Counted from the stretch's first letter, positions 1 through 60,887 are shown. The stretch: 64,000 nt of DNA from Candidatus Methylomirabilota bacterium (GCA_028870115.1 JAGWQH010000096.1:1242-65241), one strand, 5' to 3'. Notes: generated by a model not told the origin, from the letters alone. Made by a program: numbers and translations.

Positions 1-782
1 AGGATGAGATCGGGATGCTCCAGGCCGTACTTGCGCTTGGCGTCCGGGCCTGAGCCGACAAATGCCGTCGCGCGGGTGTCCTTGATCTTCCACAACAATT
101 GCCCGATTACTGCCGCGTCCGCTCTGGCCTTGATCGGTTTGCTGATCTCCCACCCCTTGCCTTTGGCGTGGCTGAGGCTGATCGGTTGTCCCTTGCCCGT
201 CAGTTCGACCTGGGTGACTTGGTTCGGCTCCAGTGTAAGTAGGGTCTTGTTACGAAAATCGTCCGGTTTCCGATCGGCGCGGAGCCGCACAATGACGGTC
301 GCCAGGAAGACCGCCGGCTCGTCGGGTCGTTTAGCATAGACGGAGCGGCCATTGGGGTTCAGATCGCCCAGCAGGAGAGCCGGTAATGTTTTCCCACCCT
401 TGAGTGTCACGCTGAGACGGAGCGAAGGATGCTCAAGCCCATAGTCAGCGAGGTTTCTTGGCGCCTCCTCAATGCGTCGTTCTTCCCTGGCTTCCAGCAA
501 CGTATGGAGCAGCGAGACGACCTCTGAGTCATCGGCCGCAGCCTGTACAGGCTCGATCAGCCGCCACCCGCCTGCCTGGCCGACAGACAGGTCGCCTTCA
601 TGCTTCAGCACGATCAGCGCGTCGCCCCGTGAGATGGAGATCTTCTCGACATCCTTCTCTTCGGCCAGGAATAATCGATTGGCGTCCGACCCGGATGGTG
701 TGCTCTTGCTCTCTATGGTGTAGTAGGCCACAACAACAAGCGCCAGCAGCAGCGCGAGCAGGCCAAGCGATCGCCACTTCAT
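1..782 (-). CDS. DUF4340-domain protein (partial, runs off window start)
   Basis: Manual translation from ATG 782 (ATGA overlap with upstream stop): MKWRSLGLLALLLALVVVAYY..., N-terminal TM anchor, WRLIEPVQAAAD and YGLEHP repeats typical of DUF4340; no stop inside window. Confidence 0.8.
   Translation of the reverse strand, partial: MKWRSLGLLALLLALVVVAYYTIESKSTPSGSDANRLFLAEEKDVEKISISRGDALIVLKHEGDLSVGQAGGWRLIEPVQAAADDSEVVSLLHTLLEAREERRIEEAPRNLADYGLEHPSLRLSVTLKGGKTLPALLLGDLNPNGRSVYAKRPDEPAVFLATVIVRLRADRKPDDFRNKTLLTLEPNQVTQVELTGKGQPISLSHAKGKGWEISKPIKARADAAVIGQLLWKIKDTRATAFVGSGPDAKRKYGLEHPDLI
571..591. repeat. 21-bp palindromic element, in frame inside DUF4340 gene
   Basis: CCTGCCTGGCCGACAGACAGG; reverse complement is 19/21 identical to 60634-60654. 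Confidence 0.75.
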
Positions 783-2383
783 CGCGACCGCCTTCGTCCG
801 AGGACTACCGATGTCCCGGAGACGAGGAACAGGCCCGGCACGACGACGACCAGCATCCAAAAAGTCATCCGCCCCTGCACCGCGCTCAGGATGATGGGGG
901 TACTTTTTGCCTCTCGCGGCCGGATGGAGATCATCGCCTCCTCCTCGGCCAGCCAACTGATGCTATTCAGGAAGAGATCCCGGTTACCCGAGAAGTTCAG
1001 AAAATTATTGCTGGCAAAGGCGGAGTTGCCGTACACCACCAATCGGGCTGCCCCTGGTTGCTTTTGCGTCTGCCCGTTGTTGGTCCCCTGCACGGTGGCT
1101 GCCGCCTTCCCAGCCTCGGGTCCCGGCGGCGTTACCGGCTTTACCTCTGCCGTAGCGACAACGCCGATCGACACCGGTCCCTGTCGATCCTTCCCTTTCT
1201 CAAAACTGAGCTGGCCGCGATTCAACTCGCCCTTGTCGGTCTCCGCCCAGCTTCCCGGCCCCGTCTCTCCGAGCTTCTGGACCGTCACCCCCTGCGGCGA
1301 CTGTTCTGCGACGTCTACAGAGCGCGCGAAGGGAAAGAGGGAGGCGAGAGTGAAATCCTGTGTGATCGCGTGCGGATAGTAAGTCGAGACGATGGGCATC
1401 AGGTAATCGCCGCCCATAGTACGAGCGTACTGATCCACAATCACATCATCCCCGACCTTGATGCCGTATCGGCTCACAAACGCTTTCAGACTCGGCGCCG
1501 TATACGGATCGAGTTGGATGAGCAGCTTCCCGCCTCGCCCAACAAACGCCTGCAGAGCTTGTAACTCCGATTCATCCAGATCACGTTTCGGCCCGCTGAT
1601 CACAAGTATCGAGGCGTCCTGCGGGACCTCACGTTCGCGAAGGAGCAACAACTCCTTGACCTGGTAGTTGGCTTTCTCGATGGCTTCCTTTGCCTGCCGG
1701 TAGCCGTTCCGCGATCTGTCCTCCAATTCGTTTTCCCCGTGCCCCTTCAGGAAATAGATCGTCCGCGTCCCTTCACGCAGCAGCCTCACCAGCCCATTCG
1801 TCAGGTGCTCCTCATCCACCTCAGCGATTTTTTCTTCCTTGTTCTTGGTCTCTAAGATCGTAGTGCCGTAGGTGGCGATGCCGTACCGCTTGGCGCTGCC
1901 GGGATTCCGGTCAGGATCGACCACCTCGAAACGGAACCGCTGCGAGAGGTCAGCATACTGGCGCAGGATATCTTCGGCAGGCCCGCGCTCCGCCTGGTCG
2001 GCTCGGAAAAAGGCTGTGACCTGGACATCCGTAGCGAGTCCTCTGACCACCTTCCTGGTCTGATCGGCGAGGGTGTACCGCTTCCCTGCGGTCAGATCGA
2101 ACCGCGTGTTGTGCTTGGCCGAGATGACCTCCACCAGCCCGATGATCCCCAGCACCAGCATCGTCATTAGAGCGACGTTCAGTCCGGAGATCGTGGAGCG
2201 TCGATTCAGCCAGGCCATAATCCCACCAAAGAAACGATACACGCTGACCAGGATGAGGACCGCCCCGAGCAAGAGGATACCCCCCATCCACGCCTTCAGA
2301 TCCGGACGGATGTTATAGGCAATACCGCCCGCGACAAGGAGGATGAGGCCGGCTGGTGCGGTGAAGCGAGCGAGTTTGTCCAT
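779..2383 (-). CDS. GldG-like ABC-transporter accessory/periplasmic protein
   Basis: N-terminal TM helices, RFDLT..KRYTL, YFLKGHGE, GDSxF-like (YGNSAFASN), N.DLFLNSISWL, C-terminal TM; start refined to ATG 2383. Confidence 0.85.
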   Translation of the reverse strand: MDKLARFTAPAGLILLVAGGIAYNIRPDLKAWMGGILLLGAVLILVSVYRFFGGIMAWLNRRSTISGLNVALMTMLVLGIIGLVEVISAKHNTRFDLTAGKRYTLADQTRKVVRGLATDVQVTAFFRADQAERGPAEDILRQYADLSQRFRFEVVDPDRNPGSAKRYGIATYGTTILETKNKEEKIAEVDEEHLTNGLVRLLREGTRTIYFLKGHGENELEDRSRNGYRQAKEAIEKANYQVKELLLLREREVPQDASILVISGPKRDLDESELQALQAFVGRGGKLLIQLDPYTAPSLKAFVSRYGIKVGDDVIVDQYARTMGGDYLMPIVSTYYPHAITQDFTLASLFPFARSVDVAEQSPQGVTVQKLGETGPGSWAETDKGELNRGQLSFEKGKDRQGPVSIGVVATAEVKPVTPPGPEAGKAAATVQGTNNGQTQKQPGAARLVVYGNSAFASNNFLNFSGNRDLFLNSISWLAEEEAMISIRPREAKSTPIILSAVQGRMTFWMLVVVVPGLFLVSGTSVVLGRRRSR

Positions 2384-2385
2384 GG

Positions 2386-3153
2386 TCAGCCTCTCCACCG
2401 TTTCGATTCCAGAGAACGGAGTGTCAGGAAGAGGCAGAGGAGCGTGAAATTGAGGTAGAAGATCACGTCCCTGCTTTCAATGGTACCCTTGGCAAAGCTG
2501 TCGTAATGGTTGATGATCGAGAGGTGCGAGAGGATGGGGCCCAGCGTTGGCCCGGCCGCCTCGGTGGACCAGCCGATGACCCACAGCAGCAGGAGTATAC
2601 CGAAGGCCCCGACGGCCGCGACGACCTGGTTTTCGGTGAGGGAGGAGGCTAAAATCCCGAGTCCCAGGAAGGCCATGCCGAGAAGCAGGAGACCAAGGTA
2701 GCCGCTCAGGATAAGTCCCCATTCCAGCATGGCGAAGGATCCGAGCATTGCGATATCCAGCAGAGTAATCCCGAGCATCATCGAGTACAGCGCGAGCGCC
2801 GCCAGAAACTTACCCAACAGCAGCTCCCAGTCCCTGATCGGATACGAGAAGAGTAGCTCGATAGTCCCCGTCTTCTTCTCTTCTGAAAACAGGCGCATGG
2901 TGGCCGCCGGCATCAGCAGCAGCATCGTGATGGCGATATCGCGAAAGAGCGGGCGAACGATCCACTCGGAGGCGTTCAGACCTCGACCGAACCCGGGGTT
3001 CATCGTGGCCTGCAGGCTGCTGAGCGAGAAGAAGGTGAAGAGGCTATAGAAAAAATAGCCCGAGATGAGCGCAAAGATGGTTAAGATCACGTAGGCGATC
3101 GGCGACGCAAAGTAGGCTCGCCATTCTTTCTTGAAGATCGCCAGGACATTCAT
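2386..3153 (-). CDS. ABC-2 type permease (GldF-like)
   Basis: KEWRAYFASPIAY, EEKKTGTIELLFSYP, multiple TM helices; ATG 3153 overlaps ATPase stop. Confidence 0.9.
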   Translation of the reverse strand: MNVLAIFKKEWRAYFASPIAYVILTIFALISGYFFYSLFTFFSLSSLQATMNPGFGRGLNASEWIVRPLFRDIAITMLLLMPAATMRLFSEEKKTGTIELLFSYPIRDWELLLGKFLAALALYSMMLGITLLDIAMLGSFAMLEWGLILSGYLGLLLLGMAFLGLGILASSLTENQVVAAVGAFGILLLLWVIGWSTEAAGPTLGPILSHLSIINHYDSFAKGTIESRDVIFYLNFTLLCLFLTLRSLESKRWRG

Positions 3154-4139
3154 TCCCGCACCTCCTGCGCTTCTTTGGTCACCAGGCGGACGAAGATCTC
3201 CTCCAGACTCATGTCGGCGGGGCGAAGTTCCAGCAGCCCCCATCCGCGCTCAATGATCAGGCGCGACACCTCGCGGCGCAGATCACAATTCCGCTCCGAC
3301 TCCACGACGAAGCTGTTGGCGGTCTCGCCTGTCGGTTCGGCAGACAGGTGGCACGCAGACAGGTGCGTTTCATCCTCCGCCACGACCCGCAGGACGCCTG
3401 GAAGCTGGGTCAGAGCGATCCCGACCTGGTTCACTGGCCCCTCGACCCTGATGCGCAGTTTGGTGGAACTCTGAAGCCCGGCTGTCAGGTTCTCCGGGGT
3501 GTCAACTGCTACGATCTGTCCATTGTTGATGATAATCACTCGATGACAGATCATGCTGACCTCGGGCAGAATGTGGGTCGACAGGATGATCGTACTTTGG
3601 CCGGCCAGCGCCTTGATGAGCTGCCTGATCTCGATGATCTGTTTCGGGTCAAGCCCGATGGTCGGCTCGTCCAGGATGAGCACCTCAGGATCGTTGAGCA
3701 GCGCCTGAGCGATCCCAACCCGCTGCCGATAACCGCGCGAGAGTGCCCCGATCAAGGTCCGCCGCACCCCGGCGACCCCGCACTTTTCCATCACCTCACC
3801 GATCTTACGCCGTCGATTCGCACGCTCCACGCCTTTGATCTCAGCCACGAACTCCAGGTAGTCGGCTACCTTCATATCGGTGTAGAGCGGCACGTTCTCC
3901 GGCAGGTAGCCGATGCGTCGCCGCATCTGAAGCGACTCGGTCAGGACGTCGAAGCCGGCGACGCGTGCCGTCCCGCTGTTGGGCGGCAGAAAACCGGTCA
4001 AAATCCGCATCGTTGTGGTCTTGCCGGCGCCATTCGGCCCGAGGAATCCTACGATCTCCCCTTTATCAACCGTGAAGGAGACATCGCGAATGGCAGTATG
4101 CTTGTCGTAATATTTCGTCAGCTTGTCCGCTTCGATCAT
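3150..4139 (-). CDS. ABC transporter ATP-binding protein (GldA/CcmA-like)
   Basis: Walker A GPNGAGKTT, signature LSRGYRQ, Walker B ILDEP, H-loop STHIL; SD AGGAGG upstream of ATG 4139. Confidence 0.95.
   Translation of the reverse strand: MIEADKLTKYYDKHTAIRDVSFTVDKGEIVGFLGPNGAGKTTTMRILTGFLPPNSGTARVAGFDVLTESLQMRRRIGYLPENVPLYTDMKVADYLEFVAEIKGVERANRRRKIGEVMEKCGVAGVRRTLIGALSRGYRQRVGIAQALLNDPEVLILDEPTIGLDPKQIIEIRQLIKALAGQSTIILSTHILPEVSMICHRVIIINNGQIVAVDTPENLTAGLQSSTKLRIRVEGPVNQVGIALTQLPGVLRVVAEDETHLSACHLSAEPTGETANSFVVESERNCDLRREVSRLIIERGWGLLELRPADMSLEEIFVRLVTKEAQEVRE
3328..3348. repeat. 21-bp palindromic element variant, in frame inside ABC ATPase
   Basis: Coding strand CCTGTCTGCCGAACCGACAGG, preceded by a half copy CACCTGTCTGCGTGC; encodes HLSAC-HLSAEPTG. 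Confidence 0.65.
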
Positions 4140-4204
4140 CCTGCCTCCTACAACCACCAGTCCATCTGTCAGGAAGGCTCAATTCTGGAGAGTCGCCCCC
4201 CGCC

Positions 4205-4234
4205 ATAATACACAATCGGGTCCGCTGGATGCAA
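4205..4234 (-). promoter_or_regulatory. Putative sigma70 promoter of the ABC cassette
   Basis: TTGCAT-N18-TATTAT on minus strand about 65 nt upstream of ATG 4139. Confidence 0.4.
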
Positions 4235-4421
4235 CACTGGGACGCTCTCCTGACAGTGGCGGAGTTGCCCTGATAAGGATGAAGAAGCGTGTGTCGTGTC
4301 GCAGAGTCAATCCCAATATGAGTTGAAAAATCGAAGCAGCCTCCCATGCATGTCACGCTACGCGCTCGTCTCGCTCGGTGGCTATCACGATCTCGCGCGC
4401 CACCATGTCATGCGGCGCTTT

Positions 4422-5538
4422 TTACTTCGCCGCGCCAGGCGAGGTGCGCCCTTTCAGCAGAAACGCATCGATGAACGGCTCGATCTCTCCGTCCAGGACC
4501 TTGTCGACATTAGAGGTCTCCAGCCCCGTCCGGTGATCCTTGACGAGTTGGTACGGGGCAAGAACGTAGGAACGGATCTGGCTGCCCCAGGCAATCTCCT
4601 TCTTTTCGCCTTCAAGCTTAGCCATCTCCTTCTCTTGCTCCCGACGATAGTGGTCGTACAGTCTGGCTCGAAGCACCTTCATGGCCATCGCCTTATTCTT
4701 GTGCTGCGATCGCTCATTCTGGCAGGAGACAACGATGCCTGTCGGCAGGTGCGTAATCCGCACCGCCGAGTCGGTGACGTTCACATGCTGTCCGCCCGCC
4801 CCGCTGGAGCGATAGGTGTCGATACGCAGATCCTTGTCGTCAATCGCCACCTCGATGGTCTCATCGATCTCCGGGAACACGAAGACCGACGCAAAGGACG
4901 TGTGACGGCGGTGGCTGGCATCGAACGGCGAGATGCGCACCAGACGGTGGACCCCGATTTCGGCTTTCAGGCGGCCGTACGCATACCTGCCCGTCACCGT
5001 CACCGTGGCGCTCTTGATCCCGGCCTCCTCCGCAGGGAGCAGGTCGATGATCTCGGTCTTATAACGACTGGTCTCCGCCCATCGCAGGTACATCCGCAGC
5101 AACATCTGCGCCCAGTCCTGCGACTCGGTACCGCCGGCGCCCGGATTGATGGAGAGGATCGCGTTGCCCGCGTCGTATTCTTCCGCCATGAAGGTGGTCA
5201 GCTCGAGCGCGGCAATCTGACCCTCCAGGCTCCGCAGCGAACTCCCCAACTCTTTCAGCGCGTGTGGGTCTTCTTCCTCCCGCAGCAGCCCGAGCAGGAC
5301 CGTCAGCTCGTCGAGTTCGCTCCCGATGGTCTCCAGTTGGTCAACAACATCCTTAAGCGCACGTTGCTCCTTCATGATCTCCCGAGCGCGGGAGGTGTCG
5401 GCCCAGAATTCCTGTGAATGGAGCATCTCTTCGATCGCGACCAGACGTGACTGTTTTCCCGCAACGTCAAAGATAGTCTCGGAGAATATGCAGCTTATCC
5501 TTCAGACCATCGAGCGTGCGCGCAAACTCCGCAATCAT
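4422..5538 (-). CDS. prfB: Peptide chain release factor 2 (programmed +1 frameshift)
   Basis: ORF1 MIAEFARTLDGLKDKLHILRDYL then CTT TGA C; +1 frame continues DVAGKQ... into SPF and GGQ motifs; 1117 nt = 3n+1. Confidence 0.97.
5466..5472 (-). other. RF2 +1 ribosomal frameshift site CTT-TGA-C
   Basis: TAT CTT TGA C at codon 23, canonical prfB slippery site. Confidence 0.95.
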
Positions 5539-7115
5539 CGCATCCTCCTCTGTGAAGTGACAGCGGGCACCGAAGCGGTTCTTACGACGCTCCTGGCCCA
5601 CGTTGCCATGAATACTGCAACAATAAAGATGACACAGATCCACGCAAAGAGATCACCATAACGGGTATAAAACGTGTACGTTCGCTCCATGCGAATCTGG
5701 TCTGTAATGACGGTTGGCACAAAGAGATCCGAGGCATGGAGGATCCGGCCGCTCGGATCCACAATAGCGGAAATGCCCGTATTGGCTGCCCGGACCAGGT
5801 AGCGGCGATTCTCGACCGCTCGAAGGACCGCCATGGCCAGGTGCTGGGTTGGAGCAGCCGACCGGCCGAACCAGGCATCGTTCGTGATATTGACCAGGAA
5901 CTCTGCCCCTTCTTTCACGTAGTGTCGAACCTGATCCGGGAAAATCGCCTCATAGCAGATGGTAACTCCAAAACGGCCGCCCGGCATGTCAAAAACGGTG
6001 TAGGTCTGGCCCGATTCGAAGTCGCCAATTCCATACGCTAGCTTCTGCACAAAAAACAGAACCGATTTGAGGGGGACATACTCCCCAAAAGGAACCATAT
6101 GCATCTTATCGTACCGGTTGAGGAGTGTCCGCTGGGGAGAGATCAGGAACGCGCTATTCCGATACCGTGTACCGCCATCGGCGGACGCGGGCGGCTCGGC
6201 ATCCGGGCTGCCTACCAGGAGATAGCTGCCGGTCTCAGCAGCGATGTCTGAGACGCGACCCAGTAACGCCGGTTCATACCGAAGAAAAAAAGGAACGGCG
6301 GTTTCAGGCCATACGATGAGGGCAGGTGTATCCTTTACCGCCTCCAGACTGAGGCGACGATATCGCTCGATGGTGGCGGCCTGCATCGCCGGATCCCACT
6401 TCACCCCCTGATCGATGTTACCCTGCACGAGGGCGACTCTAAGTGTTTGTCCGGAACCAACAGGTGCAGAAGGCCCTGTACTGAGCGCCGTCGAAGCGGG
6501 TGAAAGGAGTCTGGGGGACCACAATAGGGCCATGACAACCGCGCCGGTCAAGCCGATCGTTTGAAGACGGTACGGCGCGCCTCCAACCAGTTGCGTCAGA
6601 GCGATATTGATGAGGACCACGATAAACGACAGGCCGTATACCCCAGCGACGGAGGCAATCGGTAAGAGCAAACTATTTCGGTATTGCGTGTACCCCAGGA
6701 GGATCCAGGGAAATCCTGTCAGCGCATAGGTCCGCAGGTACTCTAAACCGACCCATAAGGCTGAGGGACCAAGCAGGTTGAGAGGCCACGGAACATTCGC
6801 TGTCCAAGAAACGCCCAGCGCGAACACGCCGAGATAGAGCGCGAGGTATGCGGCCAGAATGAAAAGCGCAAGCGCGCTGAGAGCAAACGGCACGCCGCCG
6901 TATGCCGTCATCGAATGCGTCACCCAGGAGACGCTGATAAGATAAAAGAGTAGTCCTGCAAGCGTCCCCAGATAAAAAGCTCGAACCGGGGTCTGGTCTC
7001 GAATAGCCGACAGTAATGGGACAAGGGCCACGAACGTCAGCCATCCCAGGTCTGGTGCCGGGAACGCGAGGATGAGGAGCCCGCCGGAAAGCGCAGCCAG
7101 CAAGACCGGTATCAT
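5535..7115 (-). CDS. lnt: Apolipoprotein N-acyltransferase
   Basis: TGFPW, VQGNI, WPETA, KxHxVPFGEY, ICYE, NITNDAWFG, RAANTGIS; ATGA overlap with cdsA. Confidence 0.97.
   Translation of the reverse strand: MIPVLLAALSGGLLILAFPAPDLGWLTFVALVPLLSAIRDQTPVRAFYLGTLAGLLFYLISVSWVTHSMTAYGGVPFALSALALFILAAYLALYLGVFALGVSWTANVPWPLNLLGPSALWVGLEYLRTYALTGFPWILLGYTQYRNSLLLPIASVAGVYGLSFIVVLINIALTQLVGGAPYRLQTIGLTGAVVMALLWSPRLLSPASTALSTGPSAPVGSGQTLRVALVQGNIDQGVKWDPAMQAATIERYRRLSLEAVKDTPALIVWPETAVPFFLRYEPALLGRVSDIAAETGSYLLVGSPDAEPPASADGGTRYRNSAFLISPQRTLLNRYDKMHMVPFGEYVPLKSVLFFVQKLAYGIGDFESGQTYTVFDMPGGRFGVTICYEAIFPDQVRHYVKEGAEFLVNITNDAWFGRSAAPTQHLAMAVLRAVENRRYLVRAANTGISAIVDPSGRILHASDLFVPTVITDQIRMERTYTFYTRYGDLFAWICVIFIVAVFMATWARSVVRTASVPAVTSQRRMR
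6477..6496. repeat. CTTCG-N-GCTCAG-type repeat half, in frame inside lnt
   Basis: Coding strand CTTCGACGGCGCTCAGTACA (S-T-A-L-S-T); 17/20 identical to 51391-51410 and similar to the arms of 7946-8021. Confidence 0.65.
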
Positions 7116-7915: not shown

Positions 7916-7945
7916 TTGAGCCTGTCCTGTACACCCCTTGTTGTG

Positions 7946-8095: not shown

Positions 8096-8098
8096 TCC

Positions 8099-19394: not shown

Positions 19395-19434
19395 CTCAGA
19401 TCCTGTTAGCGTGCCTCTTCCCTTCTCTCTCCAG

Positions 19435-19456
19435 CCTGTGCGTGTCCGCACGCAGG
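19435..19456. repeat. Short CCTG...CAGG palindrome upstream of valS
   Basis: CCTGTGCGTGTCCGCACGCAGG; shares GCACGCAG with the half copy in the ABC ATPase. Confidence 0.5.
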
Positions 19457-19543
19457 CAGACGGCATCATCGTTCGACAACGTAACACATCCTGGATAACA
19501 GATCAAGGCTGGTTCAGCTTCTCAAGAGTGAGGATTGGGGCGC

Positions 19544-21397: not shown

Positions 21398-21675
21398 CCT
21401 GACCTCCGTTGCTAAAAGAGGCCCCAACCAAGTAATCGAATGGTAATTCCAGGACGTGGGGGCGTCAAGCCGAAAGGAGCGAAGGGATTACTGGTGCCGT
21501 CATCAGAGGAGAAGCACAATGCCCAAGGTAGAGGTCGAATTCAACTGAGGGCGGCTTGCCGCGATCCTGGCTAGCTTGTCGGCTGGCGACCAGGAAACGC
21601 CCACAAAGCACGTTAAGAAGATGAGGACGTGGCTCAGGCTCTTCAGCGGGTGGAATCAAGAAGGACTATCCTTGT

Positions 21676-23857: not shown

Positions 23858-23944
23858 TGGTGCCGGGGGCGGGAGTCGAACCCGCATGAGCCGAAGCCCG
23901 CAGGATTTTAAGTCCCGAGCGTCTCCCAGTTCCGCCACCCCGGC
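23858..23944 (-). tRNA. tRNA-Leu (TAA)
   Basis: Cloverleaf GCCGGGG...CCCCGGC-A-CCA, anticodon loop CT-TAA-AA, long variable arm, GGTTCGACTCC. Confidence 0.97.
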
Positions 23945-23959
23945 AAGGTCTTACTCGCG

Positions 23960-24229
23960 CTACTCGGACTGGCGACGGCGCAGCTTTTCTTTCAGCTCGT
24001 CCGGTGCTTTCGTAACCACGATATTCCCGGACCGGACGACATAGACCGGCTGATCCGCCTGGGTATCGAATTGGTCCGTGCGGATGATCTCAGTGACCAC
24101 CAGCTTCACACGGATCCGGCTTCCGTCCTCGGTTTCGTACTCGTTCCACTCCTCGCGCATCGTCCGGAAATCGAGGTCGACCCCGCCAACAGTCTCAGTG
24201 CCAAGTTGAACCTTGGTACGCTTCGCCAT
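23960..24229 (-). CDS. Conserved-looking small hypothetical protein (89 aa)
   Basis: Protein-like composition (EEWNEYETEDGSRIRVKLVV), SD-like GAAGGGG, tight spacing. Confidence 0.7.
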   Translation of the reverse strand: MAKRTKVQLGTETVGGVDLDFRTMREEWNEYETEDGSRIRVKLVVTEIIRTDQFDTQADQPVYVVRSGNIVVTKAPDELKEKLRRRQSE

Positions 24230-24248
24230 GCGCCATCCCCTTCTTTCG

Positions 24249-24686
24249 TTATAGTCCGCCGCGAACCAGCGGCTGAAGCTTCCTCCACTGCTCCGGTGTC
24301 AGTATTGCCTTCCCCTTCTCGATGGTCCTGATCCGACCCACACGGAGATCAGTCCGAAGTGCCTCTATCTTCCGCATCCTGGCCTCCACCTGCGCCAGGT
24401 CGATCGGCTCTCTGCTGAACAATCGCTGCAGCTCCTGTTCCATTCGTTGAAGCTCTGCGGCCTGCAGCTCGGCCTGTCGCTGGAAATCGCTGCGAAGACG
24501 GTCTAAAGCCTGGATCTGTGCAGGCGTGAGCGAGAGATCTCGGGCGTGCCACAGCATCAGGGTGATGAGGGGGAGTTGCTCCATGGGGCCTGGACGGCCT
24601 AGTGGTTCGCCCTCGAACGGGGTAGGCGGCTGAATCGACGTACAACCGATGACGGTTGTCAGTGACAGGATAACAGCCCACAACAA
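24249..24686 (-). CDS. Spy/CpxP-like periplasmic (lipo)protein
   Basis: Hydrophobic leader ending VIGC, LSLTPAQIQAL and ILTPEQW (LTxxQ motifs); start uncertain (TTG 24686). Confidence 0.75.
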   Translation of the reverse strand: MLWAVILSLTTVIGCTSIQPPTPFEGEPLGRPGPMEQLPLITLMLWHARDLSLTPAQIQALDRLRSDFQRQAELQAAELQRMEQELQRLFSREPIDLAQVEARMRKIEALRTDLRVGRIRTIEKGKAILTPEQWRKLQPLVRGGL

Positions 24687-24699
24687 GTGTCGGATCGAG

Positions 24700-24775
24700 T
24701 GGAGGCGGCGGGCGGACTCGAACCGCCGAATAAAGGTTTTGCAGACCTCTGCCTTAGCCACTTGGCTACGCCGCC
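24700..24775 (-). tRNA. tRNA-Cys (GCA)
   Basis: GGCGGCG acceptor, CT-GCA-AA loop, GGTTCGAGTCC, CCA end. Confidence 0.97.
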
Positions 24776-24902
24776 GCAAGACAGGCAATGATGACGTGAT
24801 CCAGCAATTGAGCCAGCAGGAAATCATAGGTGGGTACGGCCTTGGGCAACATACCGATTACATTATGTATTTGTTTGATAACGGTTTCCCAGGTCGCAAG
24901 GT

Positions 24903-24977
24903 TGGAGCGGGAAACGGGATTTGAACCCGCGACCCTCGCCTTGGCAAGGCGATGCTCTACCGCTGAGCTATTCCCGC
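24903..24977 (-). tRNA. tRNA-Gly (GCC)
   Basis: GCGGGAA acceptor, TT-GCC-AA loop, GGTTCAAATCC, CCA end. Confidence 0.98.
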
Positions 24978-53787: not shown

Positions 53788-56700
53788 ATGACGCGTAAGT
53801 CCAAGGACGCATCTTCCAAAAACAACCAGTTGGGTTTGGGGATTCAGTACGACGACCACACGTCGGCGTTCGCGTGTCGAGGCGTTTTCTCTCTCAATTA
53901 CCTCAATCAGCATTTTGCCAAGTCAGAAAGTTTCCCGTCCCCCGACGAGGCACGGCCCATTTACGAAAAACTCAAGGCGCGTTGGTTTGAAGATTACGCT
54001 GGCCTTTGCAAACGAAACGAGGCTTACACGCGCACGCAATTCCTTAACCCGCTGTTGAACGAATTAGATTGGACGTTTATTCCTGAACAGGGCTTGCCGT
54101 CAAAGGGTGCGCCGCGCAAACAGCCTGACTACTGTCTGTTTCTCGACGACGAAACACGCCAGCGAGCCGCAAAAGAAACGGAGACTGCCGACGTTTTTCG
54201 CGAGGCCGTGACCGTTTTAGAAGCCAAGAAAGTCCAACACTCTCTCGATGAGATTTCCAACAGAGAGACGCCCGGCTGGTTTCCGAGCCAGCAAATTCAA
54301 GACTATCTCCGCAAAGCAAAGGACAAAACCGGCAATCGTTATTTCAACTGGGCGATTTTGACCAACGGCAACGAATGGCGTCTCTACTGTGAGCAAGCTC
54401 CCAATGACGCCTATTTCGCGTTCCACCTGGCCTACCGCGAAGAATTCTGTTCGTTGGAAGATTTCCGTTTGTTCCTGGCTCTCTTCCGGCCGCAGTCGTT
54501 TGAATTGAACGGCGAACGGCGTTGCCTGCTGGACACCCTTCGCGAGGAAGCTCTCACGCGCCAGGCCGAACTCGAAAGCAATTTGCGCAAGCGCATCTTC
54601 GACGTTCTCGAAGATTTGGCCAACGGCTTCCGCGATTATCCGGACAACAAGATCACCAAAGACAATTTTGCGGCGCTCTACGAGACGTTGCTGATTTTTC
54701 TCTATCGCTTGCTGTTTGTTCTCTATGCCGAAAGCCGCGGTCTGCTGCCTGTCAAACCAAGCGGCTACGGCTCAAGCAAACTGTACCGGGACAAATTTTC
54801 TCTCGCCCGTCTGGTCAACACACTTCGCGACAAAGCCAGTTATTCCAGCGAACACTTCACGGACCTTTACGAGGATCTGCTGAGACTGTTCGGGCTGATT
54901 AACGGCGACAAACCGAAGCAGAACGAGGAGTGCAAAGTTACCCGTTACAACGGCGGTTTATTCAATCCGCAACCGCATCGCAACATCGAAAAATGGCGCG
55001 TCAGCGACAAGCATCTCGCCAGCGTCCTGCGCCAACTGATTTTTTCGCAACCGCCCGCGCGAAGTTCCGCCCGGCAGCAACAGATCACCACCGACGAAAC
55101 GATTGATTACGGCCTGCTGGAGGTCCGGCAGCTTGGCGACATTTACGAGGGCTTGCTCGGCGCAGTGCTGGAAGTCAACGACAAGGGACGGCTGGAATTA
55201 CGAAGCGCCAACGGTGAGAACCATCGCCACGGCATTATTTACACGCCTGATTGGATTGTCTGTTATCTTCTGCGTGAATCCCTGCAACCGCTGATTAACG
55301 GAATCGAAGCCAGCCCGGAAGTGCGGGCCGCACTCAAGGCCAATTCCAACGAAAAGAAGCGCGACAATAGCTTCGCGCTCGCCGTATTGCGCCTGAATCT
55401 GCTTGATCCCACGATGGGCAGCGGCCATTTCCTCGTTCGCGCCACGGAATGGCTCGCGGAGCAGATCGTGTATCATCCCACGACGCAGACCATGACCGAA
55501 AAGGTCGTCGCTACCGGCGCAAGCCGCCGCTCGCGTGAAGACATTTTGAAGAGGGGCAAAATCCCCGTCGCGCCCGGCGCGTCGCAGGAGCAGGCGGAAA
55601 TTGCCTACTGGCGTCGCCGCGTTGTTGAATCCTGCATTTACGGCGTGGACGTAAATCCCCTCGCGGTGGAACTGGCCAAACTTTCGCTCTGGCTCACCTG
55701 CATCGCCGCTGATGAGCCGCTGAATTTCCTCGATCACCATTTACGCACAGGTAATTCCCTGCTCTCGGTGAACCCTGGCGAGCTGCGGCATCTACCGGTC
55801 GCTACCAAAGCTGAAACAGCGCAACTGACTTTTAACATCGGAGGGCGCATGACCGAAGCGATCAAGGCGGTCATTGCCGAAAACGTCCACATCGAAGAAA
55901 CGGCCAGTACCGAAATGGACTTGGTGAAGGGCAAGGAAACGCGCTGGAAAAACGTCCGCGAAAAACTCCGCCCATTCCTTTACCTTGCCGACGTGTGGCT
56001 CGCGGCGCTGGATGGCCTGCCGCTTAATGAACTGAATTACCAAATGCTCGCCCGCGCCGAACTTGCGCCGGGCGAACTGGACCACAAAGAGAAGGCCGAC
56101 GCCAAAAAGCTCCGCGATTCGCTCGCCAAGGACCTTCATGCGAAGCACAAGGCGCTCACTCCGTTCCACTGGCGCCTGGAATTTCCCGACGTCTTTTTTG
56201 AAACCGACGGCCAGCCCCGCTCGGAAGCCGAGTGCGGCTTCGACTGTCTACTGGGCAACCCGCCGTACATTTCCACACACACCAGCAGCGCCGAAAGTTG
56301 GCGCGACGCCCTTCATAAACGCACCGGATACCTGGAAGACCTCTACGTCCATTTCACCGATTTGGGTTTTCAGATTCTTCGTCCCGGTGGACGATTCGGG
56401 TTCATCGTCTCTGACACGTTCTTCACGCTGGCGAGTAAGTTGCGAATGCGGAAAATACTCCAGACGCATGCCCTGACCCACCTCGGTCAGTGTGACCCAT
56501 TTGACGCGACCGTGGACGCCGCTATTTTCGTCGCCACCAAAACCACGCCGACTTGTCCGGCCAAGTTTGATGACATGCTCTTTGTTCAGGCCCGCCCGCG
56601 CAAAGTCGCCAACGGCAAATCAACCAACCCGGAAAAGGATTTGCCGACACTGAAATCGGCTAACGAAATTGACTTTTCCGGTTCGACCGCGCTTGCCGCA

Positions 56701-58266
56701 ATTGCTGGCGAAGTGAAACACGGCGAGCATGGCTGCCTGCGCTTTCATCGCGTGCCTGGCGCGCTTTACCGCGCCGCGCACAAGCAGGTTTTCTTTGAGC
56801 CGCGCCCCGGCACTCTCATGCTCTTTGAAAGGTTCAACGAGCCGGTGAAACAACTTGTCGCGGAATGGTGGGAGCGGATCGAGACTTCGCAGAAATTTTC
56901 CGACAACCACGCGAACATCCACGCTTATCACGCCTCACTAAGACCGGGCACCGTTACACTCGTTGGGCTGATTGCCGAAGGCGGCCAAGGAATGCGGACT
57001 GCGAACAACGCCCGTTTTCTCGGCTACCTGCACGGCACGCCCGCCGCCGATGATATTCTTGCCAAGCGCGAGGAATGGACAAAACGCTGGCTGGCTGACG
57101 CAGAAATCAAACCGGTATTTCTCAGATTGCTTGCGAAGAACGGTGGCGATGCCAATAAGCCGACACGAAACAGTGCCGCCTGGGAAGCCTGCGTTGAACC
57201 GTTGAAAGCACAATTCACACAGGCAAAACTCGGCTTCACTAAAACTGATCTTTACCGCATTGTGTTGCCTGATTTGATAGCCAAGCCGGCAGATTTTGAA
57301 TTTGCCTTTTCCGAACGCAAAAAGGAGTTGCTCACGCTGTGGCGTACGGCAAGGGACTTGAAAGATTTTTGGGAGGCTGACCTGGAACTCGGTTTCAGCA
57401 AGGGCACACGGAAAAAACTCCAGACACAAGCTGACGTTTCCGACAAGGATTTTTGGGAGCTGTGCCAGGAATTGCAGTCATGGGTGAAATCACGGCGTAA
57501 GGCGGGAAAGGCTCTTGGCTTGCGCTCGGCTGAAAATTACACCGACCCCGTCGACGCGCCGCGCATTGCCGCGATTTACAACGGCCTGAGCGGACATGGC
57601 CAGTTTGTTCCATTCCGCAAAGGCGACCCCGAAGGTAATCGCTGGGTGGATAACGAGCCGCTCTTCATTGATTGGTCGAAGGCATCAGTGGATTGGCTTT
57701 CAGGAGCGCCCGAAGCTCGTTGGCAAGGTCACAAATATTTCTTCACAAGCGGGATAACTTGGACAGCCGTTGCCAATCACGTCGCCATGAAAGCCCGCTA
57801 CCAGGAACCATGCGTTTTCGACGCCGACAGTATGCGGCTGACGCCGCAACCAAGCGTGATTGAACCGTTGGCCTTTCTCGCGTTGCTCAATTCAGATGTG
57901 ATGAGTTTCATCAAAATGAAGTTCATCAAGCACACGCAGAAATGGGAGATCGGCGACTTGCGCCAGTTGCCGCTGGTGATGCCGACGAAAGCGCAAGAAA
58001 AGCGGCTGAAAGAATTGGCCGAGCAAGCCATGGAAGCCAAGCGGCTCACCTTCACCGGCGCTACGCCGTCGAACGAATTGGTGGCGTCTATCCGCAACCT
58101 CTCGGAAAAACTCGTCGCCACCGCCCCGACGTATCTGCGCCCGACGGCGCAATTTAAACTTCTGCACACCGCGGCCGATTGTCTGGCTGTAATTGAACTG
58201 ACCGTGAATTGGGAAGCCGAAAAGCTTTACGGCGTGGAAGGCTTGGGCCCATTTAATGAATTCTAG
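53788..58266 (+). CDS. Type IIG/Eco57I-like restriction endonuclease-N6-adenine methyltransferase fusion
   Basis: N-terminal PDY...LEAK nuclease motif, ILTNG.EWRLY, YNGGLF, LG.IYEGLL, YTP.WIV, motif I DPTMGSGHFL, IYGVD.NP.AVEL..LSLWL, motif IV GNPPY, C-terminal TRD. Confidence 0.9.
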   Translation: MTRKSKDASSKNNQLGLGIQYDDHTSAFACRGVFSLNYLNQHFAKSESFPSPDEARPIYEKLKARWFEDYAGLCKRNEAYTRTQFLNPLLNELDWTFIPEQGLPSKGAPRKQPDYCLFLDDETRQRAAKETETADVFREAVTVLEAKKVQHSLDEISNRETPGWFPSQQIQDYLRKAKDKTGNRYFNWAILTNGNEWRLYCEQAPNDAYFAFHLAYREEFCSLEDFRLFLALFRPQSFELNGERRCLLDTLREEALTRQAELESNLRKRIFDVLEDLANGFRDYPDNKITKDNFAALYETLLIFLYRLLFVLYAESRGLLPVKPSGYGSSKLYRDKFSLARLVNTLRDKASYSSEHFTDLYEDLLRLFGLINGDKPKQNEECKVTRYNGGLFNPQPHRNIEKWRVSDKHLASVLRQLIFSQPPARSSARQQQITTDETIDYGLLEVRQLGDIYEGLLGAVLEVNDKGRLELRSANGENHRHGIIYTPDWIVCYLLRESLQPLINGIEASPEVRAALKANSNEKKRDNSFALAVLRLNLLDPTMGSGHFLVRATEWLAEQIVYHPTTQTMTEKVVATGASRRSREDILKRGKIPVAPGASQEQAEIAYWRRRVVESCIYGVDVNPLAVELAKLSLWLTCIAADEPLNFLDHHLRTGNSLLSVNPGELRHLPVATKAETAQLTFNIGGRMTEAIKAVIAENVHIEETASTEMDLVKGKETRWKNVREKLRPFLYLADVWLAALDGLPLNELNYQMLARAELAPGELDHKEKADAKKLRDSLAKDLHAKHKALTPFHWRLEFPDVFFETDGQPRSEAECGFDCLLGNPPYISTHTSSAESWRDALHKRTGYLEDLYVHFTDLGFQILRPGGRFGFIVSDTFFTLASKLRMRKILQTHALTHLGQCDPFDATVDAAIFVATKTTPTCPAKFDDMLFVQARPRKVANGKSTNPEKDLPTLKSANEIDFSGSTALAAIAGEVKHGEHGCLRFHRVPGALYRAAHKQVFFEPRPGTLMLFERFNEPVKQLVAEWWERIETSQKFSDNHANIHAYHASLRPGTVTLVGLIAEGGQGMRTANNARFLGYLHGTPAADDILAKREEWTKRWLADAEIKPVFLRLLAKNGGDANKPTRNSAAWEACVEPLKAQFTQAKLGFTKTDLYRIVLPDLIAKPADFEFAFSERKKELLTLWRTARDLKDFWEADLELGFSKGTRKKLQTQADVSDKDFWELCQELQSWVKSRRKAGKALGLRSAENYTDPVDAPRIAAIYNGLSGHGQFVPFRKGDPEGNRWVDNEPLFIDWSKASVDWLSGAPEARWQGHKYFFTSGITWTAVANHVAMKARYQEPCVFDADSMRLTPQPSVIEPLAFLALLNSDVMSFIKMKFIKHTQKWEIGDLRQLPLVMPTKAQEKRLKELAEQAMEAKRLTFTGATPSNELVASIRNLSEKLVATAPTYLRPTAQFKLLHTAADCLAVIELTVNWEAEKLYGVEGLGPFNEF

Positions 58267-58577
58267 TCACGCGCGTTGGTGATGGATTGAGAGACTCCAG
58301 CGAACAATGATATTACGCCTAGCGCGCCATTTCGGAACCGATGCCCAATCCTGGCTGAACTTGCAAACTGTCTATAAACTGCCTGTTGCGGAGCTGGCAT
58401 TCGGCCATGCCATCGATCGCCAAGTACAGCCCCCCGCGAAGCGGCGCGATTAAGGTACCGCACAGACTTGACAACTTCCTGGCAAGACAGCAGAATCGCT
58501 GTAGTCGCCAAATGTGTCGGGTAGCGATGCATCGGTCAATACACTCAACGGTCGGCCAGCACTGCAACGAGGCGTTA

Positions 58578-59039
58578 TTGAGTACCCGGTCGTCTGGCGC
58601 CATCCGCACGGTCGCGCTACTTGAAGCCATGAAAGGCTCACTCGTCCTCCTGGCCGGAATTGGCGCATTGTCTCTCATTCATCATGATGCCCAACGGTTC
58701 GCCGAACGGTTGGTGGGTCACTTACACCTCAATCCGGCCAGCAGTTACCCGCGCATTTTCCTTGACTTCGCCGCGAAGGCCACGGATTCGCGATTAAGAA
58801 CACTGGCAGCATTCGCTGCAGGGTATGCGTTGGTACGCTTAATAGAGGCTTATGGCCTATGGCGAGAAAGACATTGGGCGGAGTGGTTCGCAGCAGTAAG
58901 CGGGGGCATCTATATCCCTTTTGAGATATACAAATTGTTTCGCGGCGATGCGTGGCTTTCCCTTGGAGCGCTTTCAGCCAACATCGTCGTCGTAGGGTTG
59001 ATGATCAAAGCGTTGCTTCGCGGACACCCTGTGGAATAG
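58578..59039 (+). CDS. DUF2127 membrane protein
   Basis: ALLEAMKG, YALVRLIEAYGLW....WAEW, IYIPFEIY; start tentative (TTG 58578 after GAGG). Confidence 0.85.
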   Translation: MSTRSSGAIRTVALLEAMKGSLVLLAGIGALSLIHHDAQRFAERLVGHLHLNPASSYPRIFLDFAAKATDSRLRTLAAFAAGYALVRLIEAYGLWRERHWAEWFAAVSGGIYIPFEIYKLFRGDAWLSLGALSANIVVVGLMIKALLRGHPVE

Positions 59040-59107
59040 AAAAGCGACGATGCATTTTGTCAAAGTAGCTTCTGTGGACGTGCCCATGAATCCGTCTTCT
59101 GGATTTT

Positions 59108-59214
59108 GGAACCTGCCCCGAACCCGATCCGCGGTCAAGCCCGGAATGACAATCCATGACTATGGAGCACGTGAGGAAAGAACGGTTGGATCGCTTCCCT
59201 ACGCTCGCAATGAC
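59108..59214. repeat. Two REP-like elements ending in AATGAC between convergent genes
   Basis: ...GGTCAAGCCCGGAATGAC (to 59150) and GGATCGCTTCCCTACGCTCGCAATGAC (59188-59214). Confidence 0.6.
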
Positions 59215-59304
59215 GGATCCCGGAAAGCAAAGGGCCGGACGACCATAGACTCGCCCGGCCCTTCACGCACGCTTATAATGACGCGCTATTCAGATTTGTA
59301 CATC

Positions 59305-59595
59305 TTACGTCATCGCCGATCGCTTGGCCACGAAGCAGGGCTTGCAGAAGACCGGTTTGTCGAGGATCGGCTTGAAGGGAACGGAAGTCTGCTGGCCACA
59401 GGCCGAGCAGACGACCTCGTACTCCTGGCGGGGGCCTCCATGGCCGCCTACCCCTTTGCGTACCGACTTGCAGCCCTTGCACCGTTTCGGCTCATTCATG
59501 AATCCTTTCTGTGCATAAAACTCCTGCTCGCCCGCGGTGAAGGTAAACTGCTGTCCACAATCAACACACGTCAGTGACTTATCCTGGAATGCCAT
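59305..59595 (-). CDS. Zinc-ribbon plus CxxC-x17-CxxC domain protein
   Basis: MAFQDKSLTCVDCG..F.FT.GEQEFY..KGF.NEPKRC..C, then CSACG...VPF.P....PVFC..CF. Confidence 0.92.
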   Translation of the reverse strand: MAFQDKSLTCVDCGQQFTFTAGEQEFYAQKGFMNEPKRCKGCKSVRKGVGGHGGPRQEYEVVCSACGQQTSVPFKPILDKPVFCKPCFVAKRSAMT

Positions 59596-59726
59596 TGGCT
59601 GCCTCCTGCCAAACCGAAACCCATTGTTGCCCCGTTCCTATACCTCAACGCTCCCTGAGTACACCGTTCCCGCCTAGCCTCGATCTTTAGCTCGTCATAG
59701 GCCCTCCCCTCGTGTAAGATCCAACG

Positions 59727-60887
59727 TCAGATGCCGTGCCGTGGAAACACTACCCGTCTGAGAAATCCCACTGTCTCCCTGACCTCCTTCCAGGCGCACG
59801 CCTTGGCTGTCCCCTCAATGATTGCAGGGGCATCTATGAATGCCGTACCGTTCCACTCGATCCCCTTGTGTCGGGCCAGGAAGAATTCTGGAAGCAAAGC
59901 CGGCGGCTCACAATCGTTCATGATAGCCCAGGCGGCCGTCCAGGCGCGAGCGACGTTTCTGAGGTCATATCCACCTCCGCCGAGCGCCACCCATCGGTCG
60001 CAGAGATCTTTCAGACGCCGGACTGCCTTGACGAATGCCCCAAGGCTGATTCCAATGTGGGAGAGGGGATCGGTCCGGTGTGCATCGATGCCAAGCTGAG
60101 TAATCAAGATATCGGGTTGAAAGGCCTCCACAAGAGGCGGGATCACTTCATTGAAACACCAGAGGAAGATCTCGTCATCCGTAGAGGGCGGGAGAGGGAC
60201 ATTGACTGAGTACCCCTTCCCCTTCCCCTCACCGACTTCGTTCACGAACCCGGTGCCAGGAAACAGGGTGCTGCCGCTCTCGTGGATTGACAGCGTCAAG
60301 ACTTGATCCGTATCGTAAAATGCCCACTGAACGCCATCGCCGTGGTGCGCGTCGATGTCCACGTAGGCCACTCGATGCCCGCGCCGACAGAGGTCAGCGA
60401 TGATCAGCGCAGCATCATTGATGTAACAGAATCCGGATGCCCTTCCAGGTCCGGCATGGTGGAGACCTCCGGACATATTAAACGCCGTCCACACCTCGCC
60501 CGATTCCACCAGGCGCATGGCACGCAGCGAGGCGCCGGCCACCAGCGCAGACCATCGGTAGATTCCTGGAAGGATCGGGTTATCGGGAGTGCCGAGGCCA
60601 TACCGGGCCGCTTCCAGGGGAGAGTGACCGGCACCTGTCTGCCCGCCAGGCAGGTCGGCCGCCTTGAGAACCTTCAGGTAGTCAGGCTTCAGAAAGACCA
60701 GGAGTTCATCGTCAGTGGCAGGTTCAGGTTCGACAGAACGGGTTGAAGGAAAGGATAGTAACTCGCACGCATTAATCAGATCGTAGGTGAGCCCAAGCCG
60801 CTCATTGCGAAGCGGATGCCCCGGTCCATAGTCGAACTCCAGGAACCGCGGGGTATAAATAAACGCTGCCCTGAATTCAGAAGACAT
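59727..60887 (-). CDS. Histone-deacetylase/AcuC-family Zn deacetylase
   Basis: GHP....R, GGLHHA, SGFCYIND, DIDAHHGDG, SIHE, GIDAH..DPL, GGGGY. Confidence 0.95.
   Translation of the reverse strand: MSSEFRAAFIYTPRFLEFDYGPGHPLRNERLGLTYDLINACELLSFPSTRSVEPEPATDDELLVFLKPDYLKVLKAADLPGGQTGAGHSPLEAARYGLGTPDNPILPGIYRWSALVAGASLRAMRLVESGEVWTAFNMSGGLHHAGPGRASGFCYINDAALIIADLCRRGHRVAYVDIDAHHGDGVQWAFYDTDQVLTLSIHESGSTLFPGTGFVNEVGEGKGKGYSVNVPLPPSTDDEIFLWCFNEVIPPLVEAFQPDILITQLGIDAHRTDPLSHIGISLGAFVKAVRRLKDLCDRWVALGGGGYDLRNVARAWTAAWAIMNDCEPPALLPEFFLARHKGIEWNGTAFIDAPAIIEGTAKACAWKEVRETVGFLRRVVFPRHGI
60634..60654. repeat. 21-bp palindromic element, in frame inside HDAC gene
   Basis: CCTGTCTGCCCGCCAGGCAGG; coding strand encodes DLPGGQTG. 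Confidence 0.75.

Follow-up and report, generated by a model that had tools for sequence, protein, structure and literature searches.

Hairpins within three genes

The window analysed here is a stretch of 64,000 nucleotides (nt) from a Candidatus Methylomirabilota bacterium (GCA_028870115.1, JAGWQH010000096.1:1242-65241), which corresponds to C77:1242-65241 of the genome designated G000. Three genes of the window, all encoded on the minus strand, contain in frame a short palindrome with the pattern CCTGYCTG-N5-CAGRCAGG, referred to below as the CCTG element. The genes encode a DUF4340-domain protein, the ATPase of an ABC transporter, and a protein of the histone-deacetylase (HDAC) family. The genome assembly has a size of 2.81 Mb and a GC content of 58.6%. 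The hosts, supported by the list of open reading frames (ORFs) or by Pfam, and the copies of the element are:

3..956, minus strand: host gene 1, DUF4340-domain protein (ORF list; Pfam PF14238, E = 2.4e-31), extending beyond the window start
571..591, minus strand: 21-nt hairpin element in the DUF4340 gene; window strand CCTGCCTGGCCGACAGACAGG, coding strand CCTGTCTGTCGGCCAGGCAGG; LSVGQAG after Asp
3150..4157, minus strand: host gene 2, ABC transporter ATPase (ORF list; Pfam PF00005, ABC_tran, E = 1.3e-31)
3328..3363, minus strand: 36-nt composite insert in the ABC ATPase gene, encoding LSACHLSAEPTG
19431..19460, no strand assigned: intergenic degenerate 30-nt family member, CCAGCCTG-TGCGTGTCCGCACG-CAGGCAGA (window 19431 is C77:20672)
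59727..60887, minus strand: host gene 3, Hist_deacetyl family protein, AcuC/HDAC-like (Pfam PF00850, E = 2.7e-83)
60634..60654, minus strand: 21-nt hairpin element in the histone-deacetylase-family gene; window strand CCTGTCTGCCCGCCAGGCAGG, coding strand CCTGCCTGGCGGGCAGACAGG

The initial annotation of the window had placed palindromes at 571-591, 3328-3348, and 60634-60654, where they were indeed found, and its naming of the three hosts is confirmed by Pfam. A search of the window with the pattern results in six strand-hits, whereas 100 dinucleotide shuffles give an expectation of 0.01. Read in the same orientation, the copies in the DUF4340 and HDAC genes are identical at 19 of 21 positions. 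The copy at 3328-3348, CCTGTCGGTTCGGCAGACAGG, has a single mismatch to the pattern. All three copies start at the third base of a GAC or CAC codon and add residues of the form L-S/P-x-x-Q/P-A/T-G, which gives D-LSVGQAG in the DUF4340 protein, H-LSAEPTG in the ATPase, and D-LPGGQTG, following Asp78, in the HDAC-family protein. The insert in the ATPase gene is a composite of the 21-mer and a 15-nt left half of a 27-mer (3349-3363), the adjacent half copy that had been noticed previously, and this half copy places LSAC-H before the H-LSAEPTG peptide. An intergenic relative had been positioned at 19435-19456; it exists, but it is better described as a 30-nt member at 19431-19460, which has two arm mismatches, one base in each arm, to the canonical CCTGCCTGTGCGTGTCCGCACGCAGACAGG of genomes G018, G023, and G040. 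Rfam, applied to the whole window at the gathering threshold, identifies three tRNAs and nothing else; the tRNA genes are located at window 23861-24977 on the minus strand.

Genome-wide composition of the CCTG family

The complete genome was scanned for the two 8-nt arms at any spacing, and overlapping hits were removed. Approximately 53 non-overlapping copies share the same 8-nt ends. The exact pattern CCTGYCTG-N4-17-CAGRCAGG has 39 matches compared to none for the reversed pattern, and the motif is far more abundant than in either shuffled or reversed controls, which answers the reservation that it might be no commoner than chance. Counted as exact plus one-mismatch copies, there are 5 + 1 of 21 nt, 14 + 8 of 27 nt, 11 + 2 of 30 nt, and 4 + 2 of 33 nt; a few copies are 20, 29, 31, or 40 nt long, and the other spacings are nearly empty. 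The 21-nt form, after which the family had originally been described, is a minor one, and the 27-nt and 30-nt classes dominate. A 20-mer at C6:35854 was considered as a further member; however, its length is conserved in most relatives, and it probably does not belong to the family.

The arms are asymmetric in 40 of the 53 copies, one reading CCTGTCTG and the other CAGGCAGG, so that the folded element has a G.T pair on one strand and a C.A mismatch on the other. The longer forms lengthen the stem according to the scheme CCTGTCTG-CGTGC...GCACA-CAGGCAGG. The C.A mismatch (positions 9.19) is kept in 31 of 32 distinct 27-mers.

Copies were assigned to genes using a codon-usage model trained on long ORFs. 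About 21-24 copies (about 40%) are positioned inside well-scoring ORFs, and just over half are intergenic or at the ends of genes; thus, the family is not specific to coding sequence. The additional hosts are genes for threonyl-tRNA synthetase (ThrRS), MeaB GTPase, an NFACT/RqcH-like protein, a PyrK-like flavoprotein, RecD2 helicase, a DUF6754 protein, a type III restriction helicase, and an imuB-like/dnaE2-like pair. Most of the hosts are confirmed by Pfam, and ThrRS and the type III restriction helicase were identified from their translated sequences. The imuB-like (PF00817) and dnaE2-like (Pol III alpha) genes at C43:11219-16478 contain at least eight in-frame copies, whereas about 0.1 copies would be expected in these 5.3 kb from the genome-wide density.

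The codon phase shared by the three copies in the window is not universal. Across the genome, phase 2 accounts for approximately 15 in-gene copies, phase 0 for about 5, and phase 1 for 1-3, which makes phase 2 preferred (about 15 of 22, binomial p ~0.0009 against thirds) but not exclusive. Copies in other phases or orientations encode peptides without relation to these, for example PVCVPRTGR and TCLRxxHRQ. GA^Y and similar candidate target motifs occur in phases 1 and 2 at about 40-50% each and are rare in phase 0. The deficit of phase 1, despite an equal supply of GA^Y sites, therefore argues for selection on the encoded peptide in addition to the choice of target.

Orthologues contain exact empty sites

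The orthologues of the three host genes in the window include alleles that lack precisely the element. Among 20 aligned HDAC-family orthologues, the seven additional residues are present only in this genome and in G010, and the other 18 have an exact gap of 21 nt. The empty site reads GCCGA^TGCC, and in the filled alleles 21 nt stand between GCCGA and TGCC with zero duplicated bases. The DUF4340 site is filled in this genome, G010, and G012, and it has an exact 21-nt gap in 11 of 14 orthologues, with the empty site GGCGA^YGGG. Of 16 orthologues of the ABC ATPase gene, 8 (G006, G009, G002, G008, and all other genera) have an empty site, which reads GCGCA^CGAG. The eight genus members with a filled ABC site contain 21 nt (G001 and G010), the canonical 27-mer (G003, G011, and G004), 33 nt (G012 and G007), or 36 nt (this genome). 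The two longest forms (33 and 36 nt) read as the 21-mer joined to the right or left half of the 27-mer. In the simplest history, a 21-mer would have nested in a 27-mer at CCA^C, and slippage between the duplicated arms would then have deleted 15 or 12 nt. There is no target duplication at any of the three aligned junctions (HDAC, DUF4340, and ABC). Distant orthologues and most of the close ones lack the seven-residue peptides, whose presence in distant taxa would have spoken against the initial annotation.

Further sites were compared by searching a concatenated-flank query against six congeners. At the ThrRS, MeaB, DUF6754, and NFACT sites, the length difference between orthologues is exactly that of the element (21, 27, or 30 nt), and among the congeners compared the NFACT copy is present only in this genome. 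At the RecD2 site the difference is exact in three relatives, and there are discrepancies of 1-2 nt in two filled relatives. PyrK is shorter by 27 nt in two of four relatives, and the differences in the other two are unclear. A tblastn comparison of the dnaE2/imuB pair with G007 and G012 shows gaps of 9, 10, and 21 residues. Both relatives lack three of the four dnaE2 inserts, and the fourth is 30 nt long in this genome, 27 nt in G007, and absent from G012. Three imuB inserts are absent from G007, and one (DLSACGHAQAG) is common to this genome and G007. Because orthologues contain exact empty alleles, the palindromes are real insertions, as the initial annotation proposed.

The sets of genomes with filled sites differ from gene to gene: this genome, G010, and G012 for DUF4340; this genome, G001, and G012 for ThrRS; this genome, G006, G007, and G010 for RecD2; and this genome and G011 for DUF6754. 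The presence patterns among seven congeners are mutually incompatible, and therefore require that the element was gained repeatedly at one site, that it was lost precisely, or that there was recombination. The species tree based on two proteins is poorly resolved and too weak to distinguish loss from regain.

The arms of the element have changed at 0 of 16 positions at the DUF4340 and HDAC sites, where the flanks diverge by 13-19%, and at 0-3 of 16 positions at the ABC site. The conservation of the arms inside genes is suggestive but not significant. In the AlphaFold (AF2) model of the HDAC-family protein (predicted local distance difference test (pLDDT) 89, predicted template modelling score (pTM) 0.91), the insert residues 79-85 form a coil directly after helix 68-78 and lie in the block with the lowest pLDDT (60). 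The model of this one host thus places the insert in a putative surface loop, as is the case for Rickettsia palindromic elements (RPEs), with which the insertions had been compared from the outset.

Three congeners have HDAC orthologues (G011:C35:63981-64461, G012:C77:5640-5949, and G003:C29:2106-2558) that match only residues ~1-115 and ~358-386, which implies that an internal deletion has removed most of the deacetylase domain. The orthologue from G004 matches residues 1-116, after which the contig ends.

Insertion target and nesting

The element is inserted between a purine and a pyrimidine, in this genome mostly at A^C or A^T, and the junctions are seamless. The base preceding the element is A in 36 of the 53 copies of this genome, and the base following it is C in 32 and T in 13. 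The consensus of the flanks is S-A / element / C-G-G in this genome and Y-R / element / C across phyla, where 105 of 123 copies (85%) are followed by C. Since the empty alleles carry the flanking bases, these belong to the target and not to the element.

The element also inserts into its own copies. In dnaE2, a 33-mer is positioned after GGA^C in an otherwise perfect canonical 30-mer (C43:16325-16387). On contigs C94, C32, and C28, a 30-mer is inserted after GCA^C in a second 30-mer, which itself lies in the loop of an NTS/SRM-like hairpin, CGTCATTCCG...CGGAATCC. These triple nests are located at C94:~205-270, C32:~1760-1830, and C28:~21420-21500, and the hairpins also read CGTCATTCCG...CGGAATCCAG. 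The three copies contain identical double-nested CCTG elements, which indicates copying of the composite as such. The commonest perfect hairpins of this genome include stems such as ATTCCCGC, ATTCCGGC, and ATACCGGC.

Occurrence in other bacteria and in phages

The family is not confined to this kind of genome but occurs across phyla and in phages. Within the order, genomes contain up to 40 copies, six congeners and several other genera contain none, and the reversed control gives 0-1. An exact search with the 24 fixed bases of the canonical core, across one genome per GTDB species, identified the 27/30-mer on at least 120 contigs from more than 15 phyla among the matches listed. Those matches include Thermodesulfobacteriota, Zetaproteobacteria, Planctomycetota (Kuenenia, Brocadiaceae), Verrucomicrobiota, Latescibacterota, Nitrospirota, Nitrospinota, Acidobacteriota, WOR-3, Bipolaricaulota, Firmicutes, Campylobacterota, Spirochaetota, Binatia, Chloroflexota, and Methylomirabilota. 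In 14 of these genomes, a closed Latescibacterota chromosome included, the whole genome contains 1 to 199 copies, and the reversed control is 0 in 13 of the 14; the 199 copies are in a closed 5.4-Mb chromosome. Viral contigs contain the 27/30-mer in 27 cases and a perfect 20-mer in 35.

The canonical copies have lengths of 27 nt (87 copies), 28 nt (3), 29 nt (10), and 30 nt (54), and they are open in all six frames. The multiple-of-three length and the lack of stop codons are therefore properties of the family itself and not only the result of a filter operating in this genome. In other phyla, 116 of 123 copies are not in long ORFs, whereas in this genome 5 of 15 canonical copies are inside them (Fisher p = 0.004).

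A 750-bp intergenic stretch of a Bipolaricaulota genome (L213:180-800, G040:C47) contains five different members of CCTG subfamilies interleaved with the repeat TTGGCGTCCTTTGCG... and looks like a mosaic of the bacterial interspersed mosaic element (BIME) kind. The host genome has 1.8 Mb and 135 copies. There is no candidate for a mobilising gene near this cluster; only radical-SAM and ABC-F genes are nearby.

The distribution bears on two explanations that do not involve mobile DNA. The inserts could be a selected peptide motif (D-L-S-x-G-Q-A-G), or the palindromes could have arisen locally and de novo by replication template switching. The peptides are small, rich in Gly, Ala, and Ser, and loop-like, and the excess of phase 2 is in line with selection on them. 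However, the same DNA occurs between genes, in both orientations, and in all three phases with unrelated peptides, and there are orthologues entirely without the insert residues. Independent template switching cannot explain the family, because identical 27/30-mers recur in unrelated phyla and phages. Either version is very improbable. An artefact of assembly, binning, or library preparation, with an adapter-like sequence spliced into contigs, might be considered because most of the genomes concerned are metagenome-assembled and the identical sequence occurs in very different bins. Nevertheless, copies are located at orthologous codons in independent assemblies, including the closed G007 (a single contig of 2,752,854 bp); they have lineage-specific substitutions and length variants, keep reading frames open, and show defined nesting, and one closed chromosome holds 199 of them. 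We regard an artefact as the most far-fetched of the explanations discussed here.

Candidate mobilising enzymes

The initial annotation suggested a search for a REP-associated tyrosine transposase (RAYT) or an IS200-type partner with matching ends. PF01797, the Y1 transposase family, was searched for in this genome, 30 relatives, and 10 other carrier genomes, and 1.5 kb on either side of 40 Y1 loci were scanned for the element. No partner adjoins the element beyond the level of chance: among the 11 Y1 loci of relatives none has a copy within 1.5 kb, and among the 29 of other phyla two have one. The single Y1 gene of this genome (L001, C46:13770-14129, PF01797 E = 5.6e-41) is of the IS200 type, and the hairpins at its ends, ctcgccttcaggcgag and ctaccgccttccaggcggtag, are unrelated to the CCTG family. 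The 227-residue Y1 class found in several congeners is not flanked by CCTG hairpins.

These results bear on the possibility that the CCTG element is a classical repetitive extragenic palindrome (REP) or REPIN, that is, a hairpin mobilised by the RAYT, a Y1 HUH enzyme, of the same genome. The size, imperfect palindrome, G.T pairs, dispersal, and seamless junctions of the element are REP-like, a PF01797 hit is present in every element-bearing genome tested outside the genus, the 227-residue class offers a potential enzyme in several congeners, and intragenic REPs are documented, often in dnaE2 and repair genes (PMC3733652). However, the ends of the element are CCTG/CAGG in place of a GTAG or CGTC tag, and neither the IS200-like gene of this genome nor the 227-residue class is accompanied by it. 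Furthermore, G001 (10 copies) and G009 (6 copies) have no Y1 hit, whereas G021 has nine Y1 hits and no element. The RAYT explanation is therefore clearly unlikely.

A second candidate enzyme was indicated by the perfect 20-nt variant CCTGCCTGCCGGCAGGCAGG, which is positioned upstream of a GIY-YIG module, at a distance of 22-66 nt, in three unrelated replicons:

C5:32601-32896 (this genome): 20-mer and ~83-residue GIY-YIG module, in frame inside a DUF1156 methylase ORF in a defence-like gene cluster
L204:1413-1737: 20-mer and GIY-YIG module, Thermodesulfobacteriota hsdS gene
L276:515-792: 20-mer and GIY-YIG module, viral contig

The element may accordingly be the cognate motif of a clade of small GIY-YIG (Ssn/UPF0213-like) single-strand nucleases, similar to the NTS/SRM repeats that flank ssnA, with nicking driving the copying of the hairpin and sometimes of the nuclease gene itself. 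Ssn nucleases cut single-stranded DNA beside their own hairpin repeats (PMC11893778). The GIY-YIG link of the 20-mer is real; however, from the sequences compared it does not appear to extend to the 27/30-mers or to the richest genomes. A GIY-YIG module adjoins only 1 of 35 viral 20-mer loci and 0 of ~150 loci holding a 27/30-mer, and of 16 element-bearing genomes only 6 contain homologues of the C5 module. In the two richest genomes (199 and 135 copies), small GIY-YIG genes are absent, and the GIY-YIG hits are limited to frames of 563-631 residues, which is the size of UvrC. By inspection, the element is also outside the published SRM consensus. A nuclease of this kind is thus an unlikely mobiliser, although a somewhat better candidate than a RAYT.

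Two observations concern other repeats of this genome. At C105:236-540, a free-standing gene for a ~100-residue GIY-YIG protein (Ssn/UPF0213-like) lies between copies of another dispersed repeat (GTTCGTCCTGAGCCTGTCGAAGGA / CCTTCGACAGGCTCAGGA). At C1:38522-39505 (PyrK-like) and C1:7-2772 (DUF1156 methylase), the peptides PFSKGGHGGI, PPFTKGGHGGI, and SPLSQRGDGGDF resemble in-frame copies of a different hairpin family (CCCCCTTT...AAAGGGGG), which has the most frequent perfect stem of this genome (24 copies). This lineage seems to be generally permissive to the insertion of repeats into genes.

Comparison with known short repeats

In their effect on proteins, the CCTG insertions resemble the much larger RPEs, and in size and nesting they appear closest to the small dispersed repeats (SDRs) of cyanobacteria. 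The RPEs of Ogata et al. (2000/2002) are reportedly confined to Rickettsia, and RPE-1 is said to be ~100-150 bp long and to add 30-50 residues. Like RPEs, the CCTG elements are found in frame in unrelated functional housekeeping genes, have orthologous empty sites, and form inserts in loops. By contrast, the CCTG inserts have only 21-36 nt and 7-12 residues, and the family is cross-phylum and mostly intergenic elsewhere. The SDR1-8 of heterocystous cyanobacteria, attributed to Elhai et al. (2008), are reportedly 21-27-nt hairpin-capable units with exact insertions and nested copies, confined to one cyanobacterial subgroup and often present in heptamer arrays or HIP1. SDRs are not known to have a transposase. 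The CCTG family shares with them the size, exact insertion, and nesting (in dnaE2, on C94, C32, and C28, and, by the history proposed above, at the ABC site). It presumably differs in sequence, and it spans many phyla and phages, a distribution that is clearly not cyanobacterial, and has an R^C target. Unlike MITEs (miniature inverted-repeat transposable elements), which have terminal inverted repeats and a duplicated target site produced by a DDE transposase, it lacks target-site duplications at the three junctions, and the whole element of 21-33 nt is one hairpin.

REPs located in genes, with a bias to dnaE2, repair helicases, and aminoacyl-tRNA synthetases, have been catalogued by Di Nocera et al. 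2013 (PMC3733652), and therefore hairpins inserted in frame are not new in kind. Like intragenic REPs, the CCTG elements are imperfect palindromes of 20-40 nt with G.T pairs that are dispersed, in other phyla mostly extragenic, and in some copies in frame, and the bias in their hosts is strikingly similar. However, REP superfamilies have a GTAG or CGTC tetranucleotide at one end (PMC3733652), which the CCTG element lacks, as it lacks a REPtron, a Y1 gene flanked by the repeat. It consists of single hairpins and not head-to-head dimers, it nests, and it is near-identical in phages and across more than 15 phyla among the matches listed, whereas REP families are normally specific to a species or genus.

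Ssn nucleases with NTS/SRM hairpin repeats restrict transforming single-stranded DNA (Chenal et al. 2025, PMC11893778). Their repeats, like the CCTG element, are hairpins present in tens to hundreds of copies in which sequence matters and not structure alone, and the 20-mer variant adjoins a small GIY-YIG module in three replicons. By contrast, the CCTG element deviates from the SRM consensus HGTCWYN(0-2)YYVSBRH... (PMC11893778), since TGTCTG does not fit at the Y position and a CGTC tag is lacking. Most CCTG copies and carrier genomes are without an adjacent or detectable small GIY-YIG gene, and Ssn/NTS has not been described as an insertion system. Searches of the literature by sequence words and by organism returned nothing on such repeats in Methylomirabilis.

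Proposed propagation and significance of the CCTG element

The CCTG palindromes insert as discrete units at R^Y without duplicating the target, nest in one another, are present or absent in a lineage-specific manner, are identical across phyla, and survive in frame in loops of proteins. The observations are best explained by a non-autonomous mini insertion element that forms a hairpin, is moved in trans, and has a length of 20-36 nt, with canonical forms of 27 and 30 nt and the ends CCTGYCTG...CAGRCAGG; the palindromes would be its copies. We assign this explanation a probability of approximately 80%, and it agrees with the interpretation offered in the initial annotation, which is supported by the orthologues and the genome-wide counts.

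Movement in trans would be carried out by a nuclease or transposase specific for hairpins of single-stranded DNA. Seamless junctions without duplication, and losses that appear precise, are what a 'peel and paste' reaction of the HUH type or nicking specific to structure would be expected to produce. The joining of strands may resemble that of HUH Y1 transposases acting on IS200/IS605 and the reaction proposed for REPs. The strict conservation of sequence, with a fixed C.A mismatch, two G.T pairs in the stem, and no covariation, points to recognition of the sequence by a protein and not of the hairpin shape alone. Because the main forms are multiples of three nucleotides in length and lack stop codons in all six frames, a gene that receives the element would merely gain 7-12 small residues. 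Copies would persist where the peptide falls in a tolerant loop, and phase 2, which encodes L-S/P-A-...-Q-A/T-G, would be tolerated best. This account of the persistence within genes is in part shown by the data and in part deduced.

Several observations weigh against a mobile hairpin. The searches for Y1 and small GIY-YIG genes described above did not provide a mobiliser. The evidence for the hairpin itself is weak, since there is no compensatory covariation in the inner stem among 32 distinct 27-mers, and the predicted stability is modest (z -1 to -3). Part of the apparent homoplasy could be the result of recombination or of composite metagenome bins. Furthermore, the case for mobility is indirect, as it is read from presence and absence between species that are 7-25% apart in protein sequence.

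In a broader picture, which is tentative and has less than an even chance of being correct, the CCTG element may be a pan-bacterial 'nano-transposon' of 27/30 nt that lacks stop codons in all six frames and is one of the smallest known mobile DNAs. An enzyme acting on single-stranded DNA, neither a RAYT nor a typical Ssn nuclease, would move it in trans, and phages would transfer it between phyla. Selection would have shaped its length and composition so that it is harmless in coding sequence, and it would have become a steady source of new loop peptides in housekeeping and mutagenesis (imuB-dnaE2) proteins of lineages such as Methylomirabilis.

Short palindromic repeats are usually regarded as lineage-specific, extragenic, and driven by RAYTs, and here the junctions of such a repeat have been resolved to the base. 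The main interest of the CCTG element concerns the agent that carries a hairpin of 27 nt across such a range of phyla. Should a dedicated enzyme be responsible, it would offer a new tool for single-stranded DNA with specificity for site and structure, comparable to the Ssn nucleases. The copies in the HDAC-family protein, ABC ATPase, ThrRS, MeaB, PyrK, RecD2, and dnaE2 are natural tolerated insertions in essential or conserved enzymes, in which a hairpin of 21-36 nt leaves the reading frame intact. Peptides such as LSACGHAQAG and PVCVPRTGR account for recurrent odd insertions and 'hypothetical' ORFs in the annotation of metagenomes, and the presence or absence of the element at individual sites provides typing markers for lineages of Methylomirabilis.

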